From: a bacterium
GTDB taxonomy: Bacteria > Patescibacteriota > CPR2 > UBA1875 > JAJYID01
Reading direction: 5' to 3'
Assembly (NCBI GenBank): GCA_021787535.1
Contig: JAJYLR010000001.1
Span: 19,648 to 83,647, forward strand
DNA length: 64,000 nt
Shown: in pieces, positions 3,523 to 56,320 of the stretch
Layout: each line of letters begins with the position of its first letter
How positions within the stretch are numbered: the first letter of the stretch is position 1
Notes under the pieces: generated by a model
The model's input: the letters and a program-made list of their open reading frames with translations, nothing else
What the model was told of the DNA's origin: nothing
Database searches by the model: none
Made by a program: the position numbers and the translations under genes

Positions 3523-3593
3523 TAGGTGGTCAATCCAAGTTTGCCTACGATGTTACTGATTCTGTTTGTAATTTACATAAATCGTAATTTCTT

Positions 3594-3625
3594 TTTCCAC
3601 TTTTTTGGAAAAAGTGGAGTAAAAA
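3594..3625. repeat. Hairpin repeat tttccacttttttggaaaaagtgga followed by aaaaatcgc. A second copy of the same design lies at 20937-20968.
   Basis: 10-11-bp stem with a TTTTTT loop. Both copies lie just downstream of genes (nrnA, efp). Confidence 0.5.
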
Positions 3626-3847
3626 TCGCGGCTTTTGCGGCTTCTCAAAATGTCGTTTAAAGATTCGCTCAAATTTAGCAAATAACAACAAGCCGATTCC
3701 GGAAGTTATTTTCTAAAAGTTCTCTAATCTTATCACTCTTTTTTCGAACCGATAGCCGCAGGAATAAATTCAGCTCTCTTTGAAAAAATCATGCCGGGGG
3801 AAAGAATTTCGACTCGATAGTCGGATCTAAAGAGGTATAATTAAATC

Positions 3848-20246: not shown

Positions 20247-20263
20247 CCTTTTCCTGTCATTCC

Positions 20264-20331
20264 CGCGGAGGCGGGAATCTATATAATAAAAATTCTGGAT
20301 TCCCGCCTCCGCGGGAATGACAATAATGATA
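20264..20331. repeat. Full-length palindromic element, family 2. Its arms are gtcATTCCCGCggagGCGGGAATc and gATTCCCGCctccGCGGGAATgac, and they are exact reverse complements of each other.
   Basis: 68 bp. Each arm is itself a hairpin, so the element can form a cruciform. It abuts the efp start codon. Confidence 0.8.
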
Positions 20332-20891: not shown

Positions 20892-20936
20892 TCTTTGTTA
20901 TTCTATATCGAAGACAGTCATCCCTTTTTAAGAAAT

Positions 20937-20968
20937 ATTTTCTACTTTTTTAGAAAAAGTAGAACAAA
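20937..20968. repeat. Hairpin repeat ttctacttttttagaaaaagtagaa followed by aaaaatccc. A paralogous copy of the hairpin at 3594-3625.
   Basis: Same stem/loop design and the same aaaaatc tail as the copy after nrnA. Confidence 0.5.
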
Positions 20969-21136
20969 AATCCCCGACTAGCACTACAAAATAGATAAAA
21001 CTAATAAAAATTTATCACTCAAAACAGTAATCGCTTTCGCTAAATCCTGCTTTTGTCCTTCGGAACGTTCTAAATTTTTAAGTTTTATTGGCTATTTCTC
21101 CGTGATGTCGGGCAAAATTTCAAATATAATAAAATC

Positions 21137-21952
21137 ATGAAAAAGCGAATTGATATTTTATTGGTTGACAAAGGATTTGCTGGAACCAGAACTAAAGCCC
21201 AAGCTATGCTCATGTCGGGCTCTGTATTTATCGGTGGGCAAAGAGTTGACAAAGTCGGGACTTTGGTTGAAGAAACTGCCGAGGTTGAAATTAGAGAAAA
21301 GTTTCCTTACGTCTCTCGCGGGGCGCTAAAAATAGAAAAAGCTTACGAAGAATTTGATTTGAATTTTCAAGATAAGGTTATTTGTGATATAGGTTCGTCA
21401 ACCGGGGGATTTACCGACTTTGCCTTGCAGCACGGGGCTAAGAAGGTTTTTGCCGTCGATGTCGGATACGGCCAGCTGGACCGGAAACTTCGTGAAGATT
21501 CCCGGGTGGTTGTAATGGAGAAGACCAATTTCCGTGACATCGAATCCCGGGACGATTTTTCTAAACGCGTCATTCTGACTTGTCCAGGATCAAAAAATCA
21601 TGTGAAAAATGCAGATTCCGGTCAAGCCAGAATGACGATTGAAAAAATCGATTATTTCGTCTGCGATGTCTCATTTATTTCCTTAAAGAAGATTATTCCG
21701 CAGATTAAAAAAATCGCCGATTATTCCACTGAGTGCATTTTACTCATAAAGCCACAGTTCGAAGTTGGCAAGGAAATCGCCGACAAAACAAAAGGAGTTA
21801 TTAGAGACGAAGAAATCCAAAGAGCGGTTGTTGAGGATATCGCGAAATTTGCGGAGAGTTCAGGATTTAGAGTGCAAGGAATTACAGATTCACCGATAAC
21901 CGGCGCGAAGGGCAATAAGGAATTTTTATTGTGGTTGGCATTTAATCGATAA
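21137..21952 (+). CDS. tlyA: TlyA family rRNA 2'-O-methyltransferase (S4 domain plus FtsJ-like MTase), carrying an in-frame palindromic-element insertion
   Basis: S4 domain N-terminus, SAM motif VICDIGSSTGGFTDFA, and CDVSFISL. A 26-aa inserted segment sits between the SAM fold and DVSFISL. Confidence 0.85.
   Translation: MKKRIDILLVDKGFAGTRTKAQAMLMSGSVFIGGQRVDKVGTLVEETAEVEIREKFPYVSRGALKIEKAYEEFDLNFQDKVICDIGSSTGGFTDFALQHGAKKVFAVDVGYGQLDRKLREDSRVVVMEKTNFRDIESRDDFSKRVILTCPGSKNHVKNADSGQARMTIEKIDYFVCDVSFISLKKIIPQIKKIADYSTECILLIKPQFEVGKEIADKTKGVIRDEEIQRAVVEDIAKFAESSGFRVQGITDSPITGAKGNKEFLLWLAFNR
21568..21637. repeat. Intragenic composite palindromic element (family 1) inserted in-frame in tlyA. It encodes ...[23 protein letters not shown]...
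   Basis: cgtcattctgac...gattccgg-tcaag-ccagaatgacg. Outer 10-nt inverted termini. The 23-nt core matches copies at 26612, 38515 and 23600. Confidence 0.8.
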
Positions 21953-23193: not shown

Positions 23194-24348
23194 TCATACA
23201 TTAAACTTAAAAATCATCACATCGCCGTCTTTCACAACATAATCTTTCCCTTCGAGGCGGACTTTGCCGGCCGCTTTGGCGCCTGACCATCCTTTATTTT
23301 CTACCAAATCTTTCCAATCCACAGTCTCGGCTTTGATGAAGCCCTTTTCAAAATCGGTATGAATGATGCCGGCGGCTTGAGGCGCCTTATCCCCTTTGTG
23401 AATTGTCCATGCTTTAATCTCTTTCTCTCCTGCTGTAAAGTAAGTTTTGAGTCCGAGCAGATCATATCCTTTCTTGATTAACCGATTTAATCCCGTCTCG
23501 GATTGTCCGAGCTCTGCCAAATATTCTTTCTTTTCTTCTTCGGAAAGCTCATTGAGCTCAGACTCGATTTTTGCCGAAATAATAACATAATCTTTCTCCG
23601 TCATTCTGGCTTGACCAGAATCTGTCATTTTTGAATTTTTTTCATTAGGATTTGATTGGAAATTGCCTGCTTGCCTGCGAGGCAGGGAAATTGGAAATTG
23701 AAAATTCTTTGTGAGGTGTTCTTCATCGACATTAAATATGTAAATATGAGGTTTCAAGGTAAGCAAGTTTAGATCCTTAATATGCCCGATTTCTTTTTCT
23801 GTGAGACCCAGTTCGCGAGCAGTTTTTCCTTTCTCGAGTTCGGTCTGAATTTTTTGGACTAAAGCTAAGGTTTCCTTAAGTTTTGGATCACCTTTTATAT
23901 CTTTCGTTAATTTTGCAGTCCTTTTCCCTGCCGTTTCGAGATCGGCCAGGATAAGCTCCATCTTGATGGTCTCCATGTCGGATGTCGGGTTTATTTCTCC
24001 GGTGACGTGGGTAATATTGGCGTCGGTAAATACGCGCACCACCTCGGCGATGGCGTCGCACTGCCGGATATTGGCCAGGAATTTATTGCCGAGCCCTTCC
24101 CCTTCCGCCGCTCCTTTGACTATCCCGGCAATATCTACGAACTCCACGATGGCCGGAACGATTTTTTGGGTCGGAATGACCCCAGCCATTTTCGTGAGCC
24201 GCTCATCCGGCACCTCGACGATTCCAACATTGGGATCAATGGTGCAAAACGGGTAATTCGAAGCTTCAGCTTTATTCTGCGTCAAAGCGTTAAAAAGCGT
24301 GCTTTTGCCAACGTTTGGCAGTCCGACTATTCCGATAGATAAACCCAT
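23194..24348 (-). CDS. ychF: Ribosome-binding ATPase YchF (Obg-family GTPase), carrying an in-frame palindromic-element insertion. The annotated start is the internal [20 protein letters not shown]; the longer ORF to 24534 is probably not translated.
   Basis: G1 [22 protein letters not shown]-terminal TGS domain ...[19 protein letters not shown] ~38-aa insert ([38 protein letters not shown]) precedes the helical domain. Confidence 0.85.
23594..23712. repeat. Intragenic palindromic element (family 1 core plus a second imperfect palindrome) inserted in-frame in ychF
   Basis: gtcattctggcttgaccagaatc is the family-1 core in reverse orientation. It is followed by cctgcttgcctgcgaggcagg, an imperfect palindrome. 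Confidence 0.75.
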
Positions 24349-24409
24349 GAATTCCTTAATTAGTTTACCAATTTTATCATAAATTCTCGTCTTTTTTAAG
24401 CAAAAACCT

Positions 24410-24438
24410 TTGCCAAAGTCATTATGTTGGTATATAAT
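24410..24438 (+). promoter_or_regulatory. Sigma70-type promoter TTGCCA-N17-TATAAT upstream of the 24547 gene. A divergent ychF promoter probably lies in the same intergenic region.
   Basis: Good hexamers with a 17-nt spacer. Confidence 0.5.
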
Positions 24439-24546
24439 GGTTTCGCAAGGATACCTTTTGTAGGCGTTCTTTTTTAACTCAATCTTTCTTTCCATCCTTA
24501 ATTTACGGATGTCAGTTTTGGCAAATGAAACCACTAGGAGTCGAAG

Positions 24547-25395: not shown

Positions 25396-25502
25396 CTCTT
25401 GTCATTCCGAGCGACTCTCCGCACTTAAATTCTTAAGTGCGGGGTAAGCCGAGGAATCTTTTGCCGTGACTGGATTCCCGCCTTCGCGGGAATGACAGCG
25501 TG
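25396..25502. repeat. Composite cluster of palindromic elements: a gtcattccgagcg... arm, an internal ccgcacttaa/ttaagtgcgg hairpin, and a family-2 hairpin gattcccgccttcgcgggaatgac
   Basis: GTCATTC and GAATGAC termini plus an ATTCCCGC-N4-GCGGGAAT hairpin identical in design to 20306-20331. Confidence 0.7.
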
Positions 25503-26404: not shown

Positions 26405-26560
26405 CATAGTTGCGTTTAGCGTTAAAGCGCCAAAGGGCGTAGAGACTAGTCTCTACGCCCTTTAAACTTTTGAGTTCAGCAACTTTGGTCTAATGAGTGA
26501 TTTGTTGCTAATCATTTTAATAAACAAAGAGACCGTCAAAACTAGTTTAATTTGTCATTC

Positions 26561-38175: not shown

Positions 38176-39033
38176 TTGTTATATAATATTTTTATGTATT
38201 TATATGTCATTACTCTCGTTATCTTTATCTTATTAGGCCTTATTACCGGCAGTTTTTTGAATGTTCTCATATACAGATTAGAAAACAAGAAAAGAAAAAC
38301 TCTTTTCGGACGGTCTTTTTGTCCTTCGTGCGGGCAACAAATTGCCTGGTATGACAATATCCCTATTATTTCCTGGCTGGTTTTGGGTGGAAAGTGCAGG
38401 AAATGCGGAAAGCAAATCTCATCTCAGTATCCGCTAGTAGAACTAGCGACAGGTTTTTTGTTTGCAGCGATCGGCCTGAAATTTTTGTTTCTGGGCGCTT
38501 TACACATAGGTATTGATTCTGGGCAAGCCAGAATGACGGCACCGGACATTTTAAATTTATTATTTTGGCTGTTTTTTACGGCGGGGTTGATCGTAATCTT
38601 TGTATATGATTTCAAGCACCAAATCATTCCTAATGAGATAATTTATACTCTTTTGGCAGCCGGGCTAGTATTTGTTGGGGTTGACACGCTATTTTTTGGC
38701 GGCTATCAGTATTTAATTGATCATTTGCTCTCTGGTCTTCTCGCCGGAGGATTTTTCTATGCTCTGGCCGCTGTTTCAAAGGGTAAATGGATGGGAGGAG
38801 GCGACATTAAGCTAGTTGCCTTTATGGGGTTGGTATTAGGTTGGCAGGGTCTGCTTGCAGCTCTTTACTTTTCCTTTGTTTTGGGGGCGGTTTTTGGACT
38901 GAGCGCGCTGGTTGCACACAAAAAAGCTCTCAGTTCGCGCATACCTTTCGGGCCTTTTCTGGTAGCCGGTACGTTCGTCGGCCTTTTTTTCGGCGAGCAA
39001 ATGGTTAGCTTTTATGTTAGAATGTTTTTGTAA
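38176..39033 (+). CDS. pilD: Prepilin peptidase PilD (A24 family) carrying an in-frame 23-nt repeat-core insertion
   Basis: GSFLNVLIYRL, tetracysteine CPSCGQQ...CRKCGK, catalytic Asp regions. The insert encodes [10 protein letters not shown]. Confidence 0.85.
   Translation: MLYNIFMYLYVITLVIFILLGLITGSFLNVLIYRLENKKRKTLFGRSFCPSCGQQIAWYDNIPIISWLVLGGKCRKCGKQISSQYPLVELATGFLFAAIGLKFLFLGALHIGIDSGQARMTAPDILNLLFWLFFTAGLIVIFVYDFKHQIIPNEIIYTLLAAGLVFVGVDTLFFGGYQYLIDHLLSGLLAGGFFYALAAVSKGKWMGGGDIKLVAFMGLVLGWQGLLAALYFSFVLGAVFGLSALVAHKKALSSRIPFGPFLVAGTFVGLFFGEQMVSFYVRMFL
38515..38537. repeat. Solo 23-nt family-1 core hairpin gattctgg-gcaag-ccagaatgac inserted in-frame in pilD
   Basis: Identical 23/23 to intergenic 26612-26634. 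Encodes D-S-G-Q-A-R-M-T. Confidence 0.8.
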
Positions 39034-43335: not shown

Positions 43336-43749
43336 GTCATTCCGACCGCCACTATGCTAATGAAAAGTGGAGGAATCCCTTACTCGTAGTATAATCTACT
43401 TATGGCCAAAAATTATATTTTCCATGTTCATATATTAGCTAGTGAGAGTGGTACTCTATACATTGGTGTCACCAATGACCTAGTTAGAAGAATATATCAA
43501 CACAGGAGCGATTTAATAGAAGGATTTAGCAAAAAGTATCAATGCCATAAATTAGTTTATTATGAAGAAACATCAGATGTTGAAAGCGCAATTAAAAGAG
43601 AAAAACAAATTAAAAATTGGAGCAGAAAGAAAAAAGAAGGTTTGATCAAAACCAAAAACCCAACCTGGAGAGATTTATCAGGTGATTTATAAAATATTAA
43701 TACAAAGGGATTCCTCCGCTCTACTTTTACGGAAGTTGGTCGGAATGAC
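43336..43749. mobile_element. Family-3 palindromic element carrying a GIY-YIG nuclease gene in its central loop. Outer arms are gtcattccgacc / ggtcggaatgac; inner arms are ggaggaatccc / gggattcctcc.
   Basis: Both arm pairs are exact reverse complements. An empty counterpart lies at 50893-50980. Confidence 0.75.
43402..43692 (+). CDS. Small stand-alone GIY-YIG nuclease family protein (UPF0213/YhbQ-like)
   Basis: YIFHVHILASESGTLYIGVTNDLVRRIYQHR (GIY...YIG) with conserved Arg and Glu downstream. Confidence 0.8.
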   Translation: MAKNYIFHVHILASESGTLYIGVTNDLVRRIYQHRSDLIEGFSKKYQCHKLVYYEETSDVESAIKREKQIKNWSRKKKEGLIKTKNPTWRDLSGDL

Positions 43750-54098: not shown

Positions 54099-54458
54099 TT
54101 GAAAAATAAAGTGATAATAGTTTTATTGCTCCTCGTTGTTTTAGCCCTTTTTTGGGCAATTACGGGAGGAATGGGAGTGTTTGCCCATACCTATAAAAGC
54201 AGGTATTTGGGCGGGGATATCATTATCGAGAAACAAGACAGGCCTCTTTTCTTTGATCAAACTCGCGTTTTCTTGGCAGGTAATGCTTGCATCAAAAGCG
54301 GAGAGGTTTACGAGATATCTATTGGAGATCAGGAGCCAGATTTTCTTGCTTGTAGTGCTGACAAGCAGTACTTGACTCTCAGCGGAGGTCCTGAAGACGG
54401 TCAGGCAGTTTCAGTGAAGAAACTGGAATCTGCTATCTCCGATAACCACTCTTTATAA
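54099..54458 (+). CDS. Hypothetical small membrane-anchored protein (TTG start, AAGGGAGG RBS)
   Basis: N-terminal TM. Confidence 0.35.
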   Translation: MKNKVIIVLLLLVVLALFWAITGGMGVFAHTYKSRYLGGDIIIEKQDRPLFFDQTRVFLAGNACIKSGEVYEISIGDQEPDFLACSADKQYLTLSGGPEDGQAVSVKKLESAISDNHSL

Positions 54459-54486: not shown

Positions 54487-54523
54487 GGGAGCGATCTTTG
54501 ATCGCTCCCTTTGTCTTTGTGTT
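54487..54523 (+). terminator. Rho-independent terminator (gggagcgatc-ttt-gatcgctccc followed by a T-rich run)
   Basis: Perfect 10-bp stem. Confidence 0.75.
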
Positions 54524-54534
54524 AAAATAGATGA

Positions 54535-54990
54535 ATGAAAATAATAACAAGAAGCTCAGAAGAAACAGTTGACCTAGGAGAAAAATTAGGTAAATCCCTG
54601 AAAGGCGGAGAAGTTCTTGCCCTTTACGGTGACCTTGGCGGCGGTAAAACCCAGTTTACAAAAGGTATAGCCAAAGGACTTGGCATTAAAGATAATATTC
54701 TCTCGCCCACTTTCACCATTCGCCGTGAGTATAAAGGCAAGAAGTTAAATCTTCTGCATTATGATTTCTACCGATTTGAATTGCCGGACCGGGAGCTTAT
54801 TGAAAGCATGGAAGAAGGCATTAATCCTGACAATGTGACGGTGATAGAATGGGCGGAAAGGGTTGAGAAACATTTGCCCAATGATGCAGTTAAAATCAAT
54901 TTCAAATACATTTCGGAAAACGAGAGGGAAATAGAAGTTATGCCCGGCAGCCGGAATTTAGAAAATAAGTTTAGTAAGCTGTCATTCTGA
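54535..54990 (+). CDS. tsaE: tRNA threonylcarbamoyladenosine biosynthesis protein TsaE (YjeE)
   Basis: P-loop LALYGDLGGGKTQFTKGIAKGLG, SPTFTI, HYDFYRFE motifs. Confidence 0.85.
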   Translation: MKIITRSSEETVDLGEKLGKSLKGGEVLALYGDLGGGKTQFTKGIAKGLGIKDNILSPTFTIRREYKGKKLNLLHYDFYRFELPDRELIESMEEGINPDNVTVIEWAERVEKHLPNDAVKINFKYISENEREIEVMPGSRNLENKFSKLSF

Positions 54991-55010
54991 GGAACGAAGA
55001 ATCTCATGAG
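54981..55010 (+). repeat. 30-nt repeat gtcattctgaggaacgaagaatctcatgag, left copy. It supplies the ATG of the GIY-YIG gene.
   Basis: Identical to 55347-55376. Hairpin ATTCT-gaggaacga-AGAAT with GTCATTC-family ends. Confidence 0.8.
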
Positions 55011-55329
55011 TTATTATGTCTATATCTTAACAAATAGAATAAACAAAGTTCTTTATACCGGTATGACCAATAATTTAGAAAGAAGGATTTTCGAGCACAA
55101 AAATAAATTGGTTAAAGGGTTTACTGAGAAGTATAATTTGAATAAATTGGTATATTTTGAAGAATTTCCGGCGGCAAAAGAAGCGATCGAAAATGAGAAG
55201 AGAATTAAGGGCTGGGTAAGAAGAAAAAAGATTGCATTGATTGAGGCGAAAAATAAGAATTGGATTGATTTATCGAAAGAAAATAGATCCTTTGTCGTTC
55301 CTCCTCAGGATGACAATAACCAAGGATGA
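55006..55329 (+). CDS. Small stand-alone GIY-YIG nuclease family protein (UPF0213/YhbQ-like) inserted between tsaE and tsaB
   Basis: YYVYILTNRINKVLYTGMTNNLERRIFEHK. Confidence 0.8.
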   Translation: MSYYVYILTNRINKVLYTGMTNNLERRIFEHKNKLVKGFTEKYNLNKLVYFEEFPAAKEAIENEKRIKGWVRRKKIALIEAKNKNWIDLSKENRSFVVPPQDDNNQG

Positions 55330-55346
55330 AATATAACTCGACAACA

Positions 55347-55376
55347 GTCATTCTGAGGAACGAAGAATCTCATGAG
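55347..55376 (+). repeat. 30-nt repeat gtcattctgaggaacgaagaatctcatgag, right copy (direct). It supplies the ATG of tsaB.
   Basis: Exact direct repeat of 54981-55010. Confidence 0.8.
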
Positions 55377-55830
55377 AATAATTATGAAAAACACATTAGT
55401 AATAGACACTTCAGATAAGGTTGCCAGGTTTGGTTTGTTTCAGGACGACAAACTGGTTGATACTTTAGAATGGGAGGCGCATCGGGAGCTTTCCAAAACC
55501 TTTTATGCCAAATTGGATGAGTTACTTGAGCGAAATAAACTGAGCTACCAGGATTTGGATTCAATTATTGTGGTTTGCGGCCCCGGATCATTTACCGGTC
55601 TTCGTATCGGAACTGTAATCGTAAATGCATTTGCCTATGCTTTGGAAATCGAAACGGCTGGTGTGATTCAGCCTCCTTGTCATTCCGGACTAGATCCGGA
55701 ATCTAAACCCCTCAAAAAACTAACATTAGAAGAAATTTATAACGCCGGAAAAAAAGACCTGAAAAAGGGCCGGACTCTCGAGCCATTTTATGGCCGCGAA
55801 CCAAATATAACAGCCAAGAAGAAAAAATGA
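55372..55830 (+). CDS. tsaB: tRNA threonylcarbamoyladenosine biosynthesis protein TsaB (YeaZ), short form (152 aa)
   Basis: LVIDTS...VARFGLF, VVCGPGSFTGLRIGTVIVNAFAYA are typical of the TsaB N-terminal domain. Confidence 0.75.
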   Translation: MRIIMKNTLVIDTSDKVARFGLFQDDKLVDTLEWEAHRELSKTFYAKLDELLERNKLSYQDLDSIIVVCGPGSFTGLRIGTVIVNAFAYALEIETAGVIQPPCHSGLDPESKPLKKLTLEEIYNAGKKDLKKGRTLEPFYGREPNITAKKKK

Positions 55831-55954
55831 TTTTTCTTCTTGGAATTTTCAATTTCTAATTCACAATTTTTAATCAAAAGAATTTACAAATTTCAAAAAT
55901 TTATTTATAATCAAAGGTCTTGGAGAGTTCCTAAAAATATTTAGCCAAAGGAGA

Positions 55955-56320
55955 GTGGTAAAGATGACCGAAATGCAGGATTTGTGCAGCTCCTTAAGAC
56001 AATGCATCCTGCTCTTACCTATACTTAACATAACAGTAATTCTAGTTCTTATATTTGCTTGTCGCCACGCCAGGTCATCGCTTACAGAAGAAGAAAAGGA
56101 AGTTTTTCTAACACTAGCTAAATATGCACCAGTCATATTCATATCTTTGCAGCTTTATTTTCTCGCACTCTCTGTTTTACTTATTTCACTTCCCAATTTA
56201 CCGGGTGACTTACTAGTCAGATGGATTGGAGTGAACACAACCATTGTTTTACTGTGGTTGTTAGTAAAATTTTATTACCTTAGACCTGCAAGCTTAAAGC
56301 TGAAAGTTGCAAGTTATTGA
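55955..56320 (+). CDS. Hypothetical small membrane protein
   Basis: ORF with hydrophobic segments only. Confidence 0.3.
   Translation: MVKMTEMQDLCSSLRQCILLLPILNITVILVLIFACRHARSSLTEEEKEVFLTLAKYAPVIFISLQLYFLALSVLLISLPNLPGDLLVRWIGVNTTIVLLWLLVKFYYLRPASLKLKVASY

Follow-up and report, generated by a model that had tools for sequence, protein, structure and literature searches.

Organisation of the tsaE-ssn-tsaB locus

The stretch of DNA studied here, hereafter called the window, comprises 64,000 nucleotides (nt) of a bacterial contig (JAJYLR010000001.1, positions 19,648 to 83,647) whose host, judging by the names that some of the homologues bear, appears to belong to a small-genome Patescibacteria lineage. 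Between tsaE and tsaB the window carries a small gene for a GIY-YIG nuclease, which we designate ssn, and this gene is bracketed by two copies of a 30-nt direct repeat, GTCATTCTGAGGAACGAAGAATCTCATGAG, whose starts lie 366 nt apart. An earlier note on this DNA had described the repeats as exact, and a scan of the window confirmed this: the two copies are identical, and no third match was found in the 64-kb window with up to three mismatches allowed, nor were there any (0) in 100 dinucleotide shuffles. The principal features of the locus are listed below; SRM (Ssn-related motif) denotes a type of hairpin repeat that is described in the next section.

54535-54990, + strand: tsaE, 151 amino acids (aa), Pfam PF02367 (E 6e-35); its last codons and TGA lie inside repeat copy 1
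54981-55010, + strand: 30-nt repeat copy 1, made up of the SRM GTC-ATTCT-N9-AGAAT-C (54981-55003) and TCATGAG with the ssn start codon; predicted left end of the ssn element
55006-55329, + strand: ssn, probable SsnA-type single-domain GIY-YIG nuclease, 107 aa, Pfam PF01541 (E 2e-17)
55286-55314, - strand: degenerate inverted SRM, GTCATCCTGAGGAGGAACGACAAAGGATC; predicted right end of the ssn element, kept in three related loci (L001, L252 and L257)
55347-55376, + strand: 30-nt repeat copy 2 (SRM 55347-55369 plus TCATGAG), predicted duplicate of the left end; offers an optional upstream ATG (55372) for tsaB
55372-55830, + strand: tsaB, 152 aa from 55372 or 148 aa from the conserved ATG at 55384; Pfam PF00814, N-terminal part (E 1.6e-13)

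Over its first 23 nt the repeat reads GTC-ATTCT-GAGGAACGA-AGAAT-C, an arrangement shared with the NTS repeat of Neisseria, and in both copies GTC stands directly 5' of the palindrome and C directly 3' of it. The remaining 7 nt, TCATGAG, include the start codon of the nuclease, ATGAG being the beginning of ssn (Met-Ser). The TGA stop codon of tsaE (54988-54990), which had been overlooked in the earlier note, is also located inside copy 1, and in the relatives tsaE likewise terminates within an SRM-like hairpin. The nuclease gene is thereby flanked by SRMs on both sides, in the order SRM(+) 54981-55003, SRM(-) 55286-55314 and SRM(+) 55347-55369. The degenerate inverted SRM is translated as the C-terminal tail of the nuclease, RSFVVPPQDD, and the last 14 residues of the protein are SRM read-through.

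The nuclease as a probable Ssn protein

The Ssn family, whose members are about 94 aa long and consist of a single GIY-YIG domain, was described by Chenal et al. (2025, Nat Commun, PMC11893778). Their hairpin repeat is bound exclusively in the form of single-stranded DNA (ssDNA), and the cut is made a few nt 5' of it, cleavage having been shown for the Neisseria and Wolbachia homologues only (PMC11893778). The Neisseria repeat is known as NTS, CGTCATTCCCGCGMAVGCGGGAATCYRG, its generalised form as SRM, and ssn genes are typically flanked by repeats of the SRM type (PMC11893778). Mutation of Y6, Y17 or E64 abolishes the activity of SsnA from N. meningitidis, and on the DNA side the GTC 5' of the palindrome is needed for cutting, the C 3' of it being most important for binding (PMC11893778).

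The protein encoded by ssn consists of PF01541 over residues 3-75, with no other Pfam domain. For comparison we used a 94-aa open reading frame (ORF) flanked by NTS repeats, derived from a gonococcal chromosome filed in a plasmid collection; this N. gonorrhoeae ORF was taken as the ssnA orthologue, the protein assayed in the published work being that of N. meningitidis. BLASTP aligned the two proteins without gaps across residues 1-89 with 43% identity (E 3e-26), and Y6, Y17 and E64 (N. meningitidis numbering) are identical in the same alignment. The closest solved structure is that of the UPF0213 protein 1ZG2 (E 1.5e-6); NCBIfam has no model specific to the Ssn family among its profiles.

The gene had been called the second GIY-YIG gene of this DNA, and this is correct, as another one is found about 11 kb upstream:

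43336-43749, + strand: other ssn element in the canonical SRM-ssn-SRM layout, with SRM(+) 43336-43377, ssn1 43402-43692 (96 aa) and SRM(-) 43709-43749

The inverted SRMs flanking ssn1 are 41-42 nt long, and its product shares 57% identity with the N. gonorrhoeae ORF (BLASTP, E 3e-34). ssn1 has His at the position of Y6 (VHIL vs VYIL). A Y6A mutant of N. meningitidis SsnA binds without cutting (PMC11893778), and ssn1 might be a binding-only or otherwise altered variant.

We consider it probable, at roughly 0.8, that the locus is an Ssn/SRM module, that is, a 107-aa site-specific GIY-YIG ssDNA endonuclease of the single-domain SsnA type together with its cognate SRMs, and hence a new example of this kind. 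The Ssn/SRM system itself is already known from its description in 2025 (PMC11893778), and the locus is a further member of it. By analogy with the tested homologues, the Ssn protein would bind the top strand of the SRM in single-stranded form, nicking it a few nt to the 5' side of the motif.

SRM-like repeats in the window and in other phyla

The published SRM pattern, HGTCWYN(0-2)YYVSBRHN(0-5)WNVSBRGN(0-2)RNCYNB, gave a single match in the whole window, at 25470-25497. We therefore used a structural definition instead (GTCAYY followed by a stem of 5 bp or more, a loop, the complementary arm and C), with 100 dinucleotide shuffles as controls. With this definition the 64-kb window contains 20 SRM-like hairpins, compared with 1.13 ± 1.06 in the shuffled sequences. 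It is evident that these repeats fall into several subtypes, and the one at 25470-25497 corresponds to the Neisseria NTS consensus except for base 1. The window SRMs carry a (C/T)GTC tag, and several convergent pairs occur, for instance at 26554/26608, 37283/37335 and 50893/50940. Approximately 5 of 24 window SRMs lie inside long ORFs.

Some further observations on the subtypes may be added. The NTS-type SRMs are TGTCATTCCCGCGAAGGCGGGAATCCAG at 25470-25497 (- strand) and an inverted pair of GTCATTCCCGCGGAGGCGGGAATC at 20256-20321, and four other SRM subtypes occur alongside them. No more than two ssn genes can be seen in the window. SRMs of the subtype GTCATTCTGGCTTGNCCAGAATC are found inside three long ORFs, at 21568-21638 (ORF 21137-21952), 23600-22 (ORF 23194-24534) and 38515-37 (ORF 38176-39033), where they are probably further in-frame insertions.

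The 23-nt core of the locus repeat is widespread. Exact copies were found at no fewer than 120 metagenome loci (at least 120) and at least 120 genome loci from several phyla, the hosts among the matches listed including Flavobacterium, Pedobacter, Mucilaginibacter, cyanobacteria, Chloroflexota, Gracilibacteria, Peribacteria and others. Comparison of the flanks of 298 copies among the matches listed revealed conservation outside the core only for T at -1 and -2 and T at +1. The base preceding copy 2 at the locus is A, which was found in 2 of the 298 other copies of this SRM among the matches listed, and the tags at the two locus copies are TGTC and AGTC rather than CGTC. In none of 303 copies among the matches listed was the 23-mer followed by TCATGAG. 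Pairs of 23-mers in the fetched loci were convergent rather than divergent at a ratio of 31:1. An ssn homologue was present at the same locus as the 23-mer in 5 of 240 matches listed, which fits dispersed repeats but is uninformative as to linkage. Neither the 23-mer nor the 30-mer was found at an uninterrupted tsaE-tsaB junction, and there was no close tsaE or tsaB relative among the matches listed (at least 240 loci).

In other phyla the 23-mer was also seen in tandem SRM(+)/SRM(-) arrays with a period of about 100-133 nt (locus L024, 1500-2600, and locus L054), and the array in L024 adjoins an ssn homologue on the opposite strand.

The tsaE-tsaB junction in related genomes

Eleven related loci, all on metagenome contigs, were gathered by way of TsaB and Ssn homologues. 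On the basis of the RNase Y gene, the window and the loci L001 and L257 are about 84% identical to one another at the nucleotide level, compared with 74-79% between the window and the other relatives that carry this gene. Every member of this clade, namely the window, L001, L252 (L001 strain) and L257, has the order tsaE-30-mer-ssn-SRM(-)-30-mer-tsaB. All six relatives without a nuclease gene at this junction (L002, L005, L006, L009, L010/L011 and L258) fall outside the clade, and for L009 the locus includes just 196 nt upstream of tsaB. Presence and absence of the gene between tsaE and tsaB consequently agree with the RNase Y tree, and within the clade the insertion is, as judged from this comparison, old, stable and vertically inherited. 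The earlier note had regarded an identical arrangement in all related genomes as an argument for a stable operon rather than a mobile cassette; such uniformity was not observed, given the six relatives lacking the nuclease.

Clade members differ in some details. L001, L252 and L257 have an extra inverted SRM between copy 1 and ssn, on a segment of 55-57 nt that is missing in the window, and their ssn gene starts with a GTG that follows copy 1 at a distance of about 55 nt. The identity between copy 1 and copy 2 is 30/30 in the window, 29/30 in L001, 28/30 in L252 and 26/30 in L257.

In the relatives without the nuclease, the tsaE-tsaB spacer is occupied by an element of 180-250 nt that begins with the hairpin CCACTTTTTTAGAAAAAGTGG and has a promoter-like end just before tsaB (L002 2776-2956, L005 2754-2930, L006 2774-2950, L009 1-168); in L010/L011 only a fragment of it is present, inside a spacer of 727 nt. 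This element is dispersed as well. The window contains copies at 3593-3765 and 20933-21111, with the promoter-like motif directly before the ATG of the next gene, and the latter copy is 93% identical to the element in L002. An Rfam search of the tsaE-tsaB spacers of L002, L005 and L006 returned no family, the only match being a tRNA elsewhere. Since the nuclease-free relatives carry another element at this position, there is no clean empty site, and the single repeat copy that the earlier note had predicted for such a site was not found among the relatives.

These results bear on the possibility that the gene is a free-standing GIY-YIG homing endonuclease resembling T4 Seg or I-TevI, which would cut double-stranded DNA at the tsaE-tsaB junction and spread by repair. 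The GIY-YIG domain and the patchy distribution among relatives are compatible with this, as is a weak, sub-threshold match to TIGR01453 (group I intron endonuclease; 24.7 bits vs a cut-off of 56). However, an enzyme of this type would be expected to combine the GIY-YIG domain with a DNA-binding domain in about 200-250 aa, whereas the protein has 107 aa and no DNA-binding domain, is clearly nearer to the SsnA type and is encoded by a gene flanked by SRMs. In addition, the genomes without the nuclease offer no intact junction at which homing could take place, and the characterised Ssn members are inactive on double-stranded DNA (PMC11893778). We consider a homing endonuclease exceedingly improbable.

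The 30-nt repeat as the probable left end of the ssn element

Evidence on the origin of the repeat comes from the relative L005, which has an ssn pseudogene at an unrelated site, between ruvB and LTD. This pseudogene is headed by TGTCATTCTGAGCAGAGCGAAGGATC-TCATGAG-TTATTATGT and followed by an inverted SRM, and the junction SRM-TCATGAG-TTATTATGT is the same as that found between tsaE and tsaB in the window. The recurrence of this junction at an unrelated site argues that the 30-mer forms the left end of the ssn element, in which case the copy preceding tsaB (copy 2) would be a duplicated element end and not host DNA. The pair of 30-mers is, on this evidence, the element's own left end in duplicate rather than a target-site duplication.

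The earlier note had pictured a nuclease cassette inserted into a repeat that already existed at the start of tsaB. The first half of this proposal holds, in that comparison with related genomes, six of which lack the gene, shows it to be inserted, but the repeat is element sequence (SRM plus ssn start) and not a host site. The corresponding explanation, that a cassette entered a 30-bp host sequence and duplicated it, is in accordance with the exact direct repeats around one gene and with the lack of this gene in the six relatives. Against it stand the 23-nt core, which is present at at least 240 loci across phyla, the 7-nt extension, which holds the ssn start and recurs together with ssn at another locus in L005, and the failure to find a single-copy empty site where the relatives hold another element. 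To our knowledge, a target duplication of 30 bp would also far exceed those of known transposons. It is very unlikely that the repeats arose in this manner.

Signs of mobility and recombination

The ruvB-LTD junction exists in three states among the relatives: without any insert (L002, 830-885), with an SRM(+)/SRM(-) pair separated by 2 nt (L006, 960-1023), and with an SRM(+)-ssn pseudogene-SRM(-) unit (L005, 631-940), whose pseudogene is frameshifted and lacks about 20 codons close to the 5' end. This series is the pattern expected of an element with terminal inverted repeats and its gene-less derivatives, and suggests mobility.

At the tsaE-tsaB junction, the sequences point to recombination between lineages. 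When the window is compared with L001, the proportion of same-amino-acid codons that are unchanged is 82% for ssn codons 1-68, as against 53-62% for rny, LTD, tsaE and tsaB. L252 is identical to L001 in LTD (100%) and differs from it by one codon in tsaE, yet the 3' third of its ssn gene resembles that of the window, with 97% of same-amino-acid codons unchanged between the two (L252 2944-3267 vs L001 2634-2915). This third may represent a short conversion patch between lineages of the same sample series, or an assembly effect.

A more far-reaching possibility is that SRM(+)-ssn-SRM(-) is an active mobile element similar to an insertion sequence (IS), which would move to new sites, decay to SRM pairs or single SRMs, seed in-frame insertions such as those in TsaB and TsaE (see below), and integrate by SRM-SRM recombination that leaves a duplicated left end. 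We regard this as rather doubtful. If it were true, the pair of 30-mers would be a trace left by the mechanism through which Ssn elements, and the CGTC-tagged REPs discussed below, move.

Reading frames and expression of tsaE and tsaB

Three additional features concern the expression and the coding sequence of the two host genes:

54520-54528, + strand: extended -10-like motif TGTTAAAAT, 6 nt upstream of the tsaE ATG; candidate promoter from the motif scan
55679-55703, + strand: intragenic SRM GTCATTCCGGACTAGATCCGGAATC in tsaB, in frame and encoding CHSGLDPES; DNA hairpin of -7.6 kcal/mol (z -3.9)
55814-55843, + strand: terminator-like hairpin with a 13-bp stem, overlapping the end of tsaB

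The earlier note considered tsaB unusually short at 152 aa. This impression disappears when the homologues of the lineage, which are 130-175 aa long, are considered; the window protein is in fact longer than the forms of 133-138 aa because an SRM has been inserted in frame. At the same position of TsaB (alignment columns 108-147), the relatives have either no insert or other SRM-derived inserts of 12-40 residues (VIPAKAGI, VIPARQRSGKHP and others), so this position would appear to be an insertion hot spot. A comparable insert, LDSRLRGND, is found in TsaE of L001 and L002.

The repeats had also been proposed to supply the start codons of both the nuclease and tsaB. For the nuclease this is correct, as the ATG of copy 1 opens its ORF, and the ATG of copy 2 does open the longest tsaB ORF. 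The alignment shows, however, that in relatives without the repeat TsaB begins with M(K)NTLVIDTS, the equivalent of a start at the ATG at 55384, and the repeat ATG of copy 2 reads ATA in L257. Since TsaB homologues begin at the position matching 55384, the repeat ATG at 55372 is probably dispensable for tsaB.

The motif scan of the window found no promoter-like site between tsaE and tsaB. Given this and the terminator-like hairpin after tsaB, the simplest reading is co-transcription, and tsaE, ssn and tsaB are probably transcribed together from the candidate promoter of tsaE. Such a common transcript leads to yet another explanation of the repeat pair, namely that its identity is kept by function, the repeat serving both ssn and tsaB, within a single operon, as a common region of translation initiation (GAGGA plus ATG). 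The lack of a promoter-like site in between agrees with this, as do the GAGGA located 12 nt before the ATG in both copies and the state of copy 2, which is 30/30 in L001 and 29/30 in L252. On the other hand, the spacing of 12 nt is outside the mode of 4-8 nt observed for Shine-Dalgarno-like motifs in the window, which weakens the candidacy of the GAGGA as a well-placed ribosome-binding site. Furthermore, the ATG is missing from copy 2 of L257, whose two copies differ at 4 of 30 positions, ssn of L001, L252 and L257 starts at the GTG about 55 nt past copy 1, and the TsaB homologues use the downstream ATG. Functional maintenance of the repeat identity is therefore improbable in our opinion. Leaderless transcription as a rule in this genome was also considered and rejected, as 2 of 22 extended -10 motifs stand directly before an ORF.

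The block of tsaE, ssn and tsaB is flanked by two small ORFs, 54099-54458 (119 aa) and 55955-56320 (121 aa), with hydrophobic N-terminal or internal segments and no Pfam match; neither has an equivalent at the corresponding sites of L001, L002, L005 or L006.

A proposed course of events

We propose that the SRM(+)-ssn-SRM(-) unit (54981-55314), laid out like an insertion sequence, was acquired in the tsaE-tsaB spacer by the ancestor of the small clade, whose members appear to be Patescibacteria. The incoming unit would have replaced the terminator-plus-promoter element that the relatives keep in this spacer, and thereafter would have been inherited vertically with patchy gene conversion. For the second 30-mer, the most likely origins would be duplication of the left end by SRM-mediated recombination, or a tandem copy of the element that was later deleted. 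In the course of these events tsaB would have lost its own promoter, being now probably co-transcribed from that of tsaE, and the SRM would provide the stop codon of tsaE, the start codon of ssn and a dispensable upstream ATG for tsaB.

It should be underlined that several points weigh against the reading of the locus as an Ssn/SRM module with this history. The predicted DNA hairpin of the 30-mer region is weak (minimum free energy -1.1 kcal/mol, z +1.2); the stem of the 23-mer has 5 Watson-Crick pairs and possibly tandem G.A pairs, the latter being uncredited by the energy model, whereas other window SRMs fold well, among them the one inside tsaB. In the window scan the 23-mer, with its A/T-rich stem, did not match the published degenerate SRM pattern. 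We know of no mechanism by which SRMs or ssn genes are mobilised, the characterised homologues included. Divergence between the intergenic sequences is too great for the exact insertion boundaries to be placed, and a short target duplication is possible. Finally, the relatives are metagenome contigs, and fine mosaics such as that in L252 could partly be assembly effects; the fine scale of the mosaic nevertheless argues against a simple chimera.

Relation to known repeat systems

The closest known system is that of Ssn and NTS/SRM. In both cases a GIY-YIG protein of one domain and about 100 aa, in which Y6, Y17 and E64 are conserved, is encoded between oriented repeats that have GTC before and C after a short palindrome, giving an IS-like SRM-ssn-SRM arrangement, and many copies of the repeat are dispersed, including the window SRM at 25470-25497 that deviates from the NTS consensus in its first base only. 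The locus differs in its apparent host, a small-genome Patescibacteria lineage, and in its SRM subtype, which has an A/T-rich palindrome of 5 bp along with the weak predicted hairpin and the mismatch to the published pattern mentioned above. Moreover, about one fifth of the window SRMs lie inside ORFs, compared with 2% of the repeats in N. meningitidis (PMC11893778), and the SRM overlaps stop and start codons of essential tRNA-modification genes.

The repeats also resemble the superfamily of CGTC-tagged REPs, for which a 2013 survey of CGTC/GTAG REPs found no dedicated enzyme and recorded in-frame insertions (Di Nocera et al. 2013, PMC3733652). Both are short palindromes that carry an unpaired (C)GTC tag on one side, often form oppositely oriented dimers and are often situated just downstream of genes, sometimes in frame within them. 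The differences are that the repeats described here flank ssn genes, as in PMC11893778, and that the locus copies have TGTC and AGTC. In common with REP/RAYT REPtrons and the IS200/IS605 family, a small nuclease gene lies between hairpin repeats that would, by analogy, be recognised as ssDNA, and many gene-less copies and dimers are scattered over the genome. The nuclease here is of the GIY-YIG type, however, and not an HUH/Y1 transposase; we know of no strand-transfer activity of Ssn, in which it also differs from these systems. As regards the Rickettsia palindromic elements (PMC3733652), the likeness is in the pattern of insertion: palindromic inserts are found in frame in conserved proteins, here TsaB, TsaE and probably the products of three other window ORFs, the units being much shorter (23-40 nt).

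The Ssn family was described as recently as 2025, and its role outside Neisseria and the multiplication of CGTC REP-type repeats are questions on which the locus bears. It offers a natural series that can be used for asking whether and how Ssn elements move: empty, SRM-pair and SRM-ssn-SRM states at one site, an old shared insertion at another, a possible conversion patch between co-occurring strains, and a hot spot of in-frame SRM inserts in TsaB. With regard to annotation, the peptides CHSGLDPES, VIPAKAGI and FVVPPQDD in these genomes represent repeat read-through, and start and stop codons adjoining SRMs should be assigned with caution.

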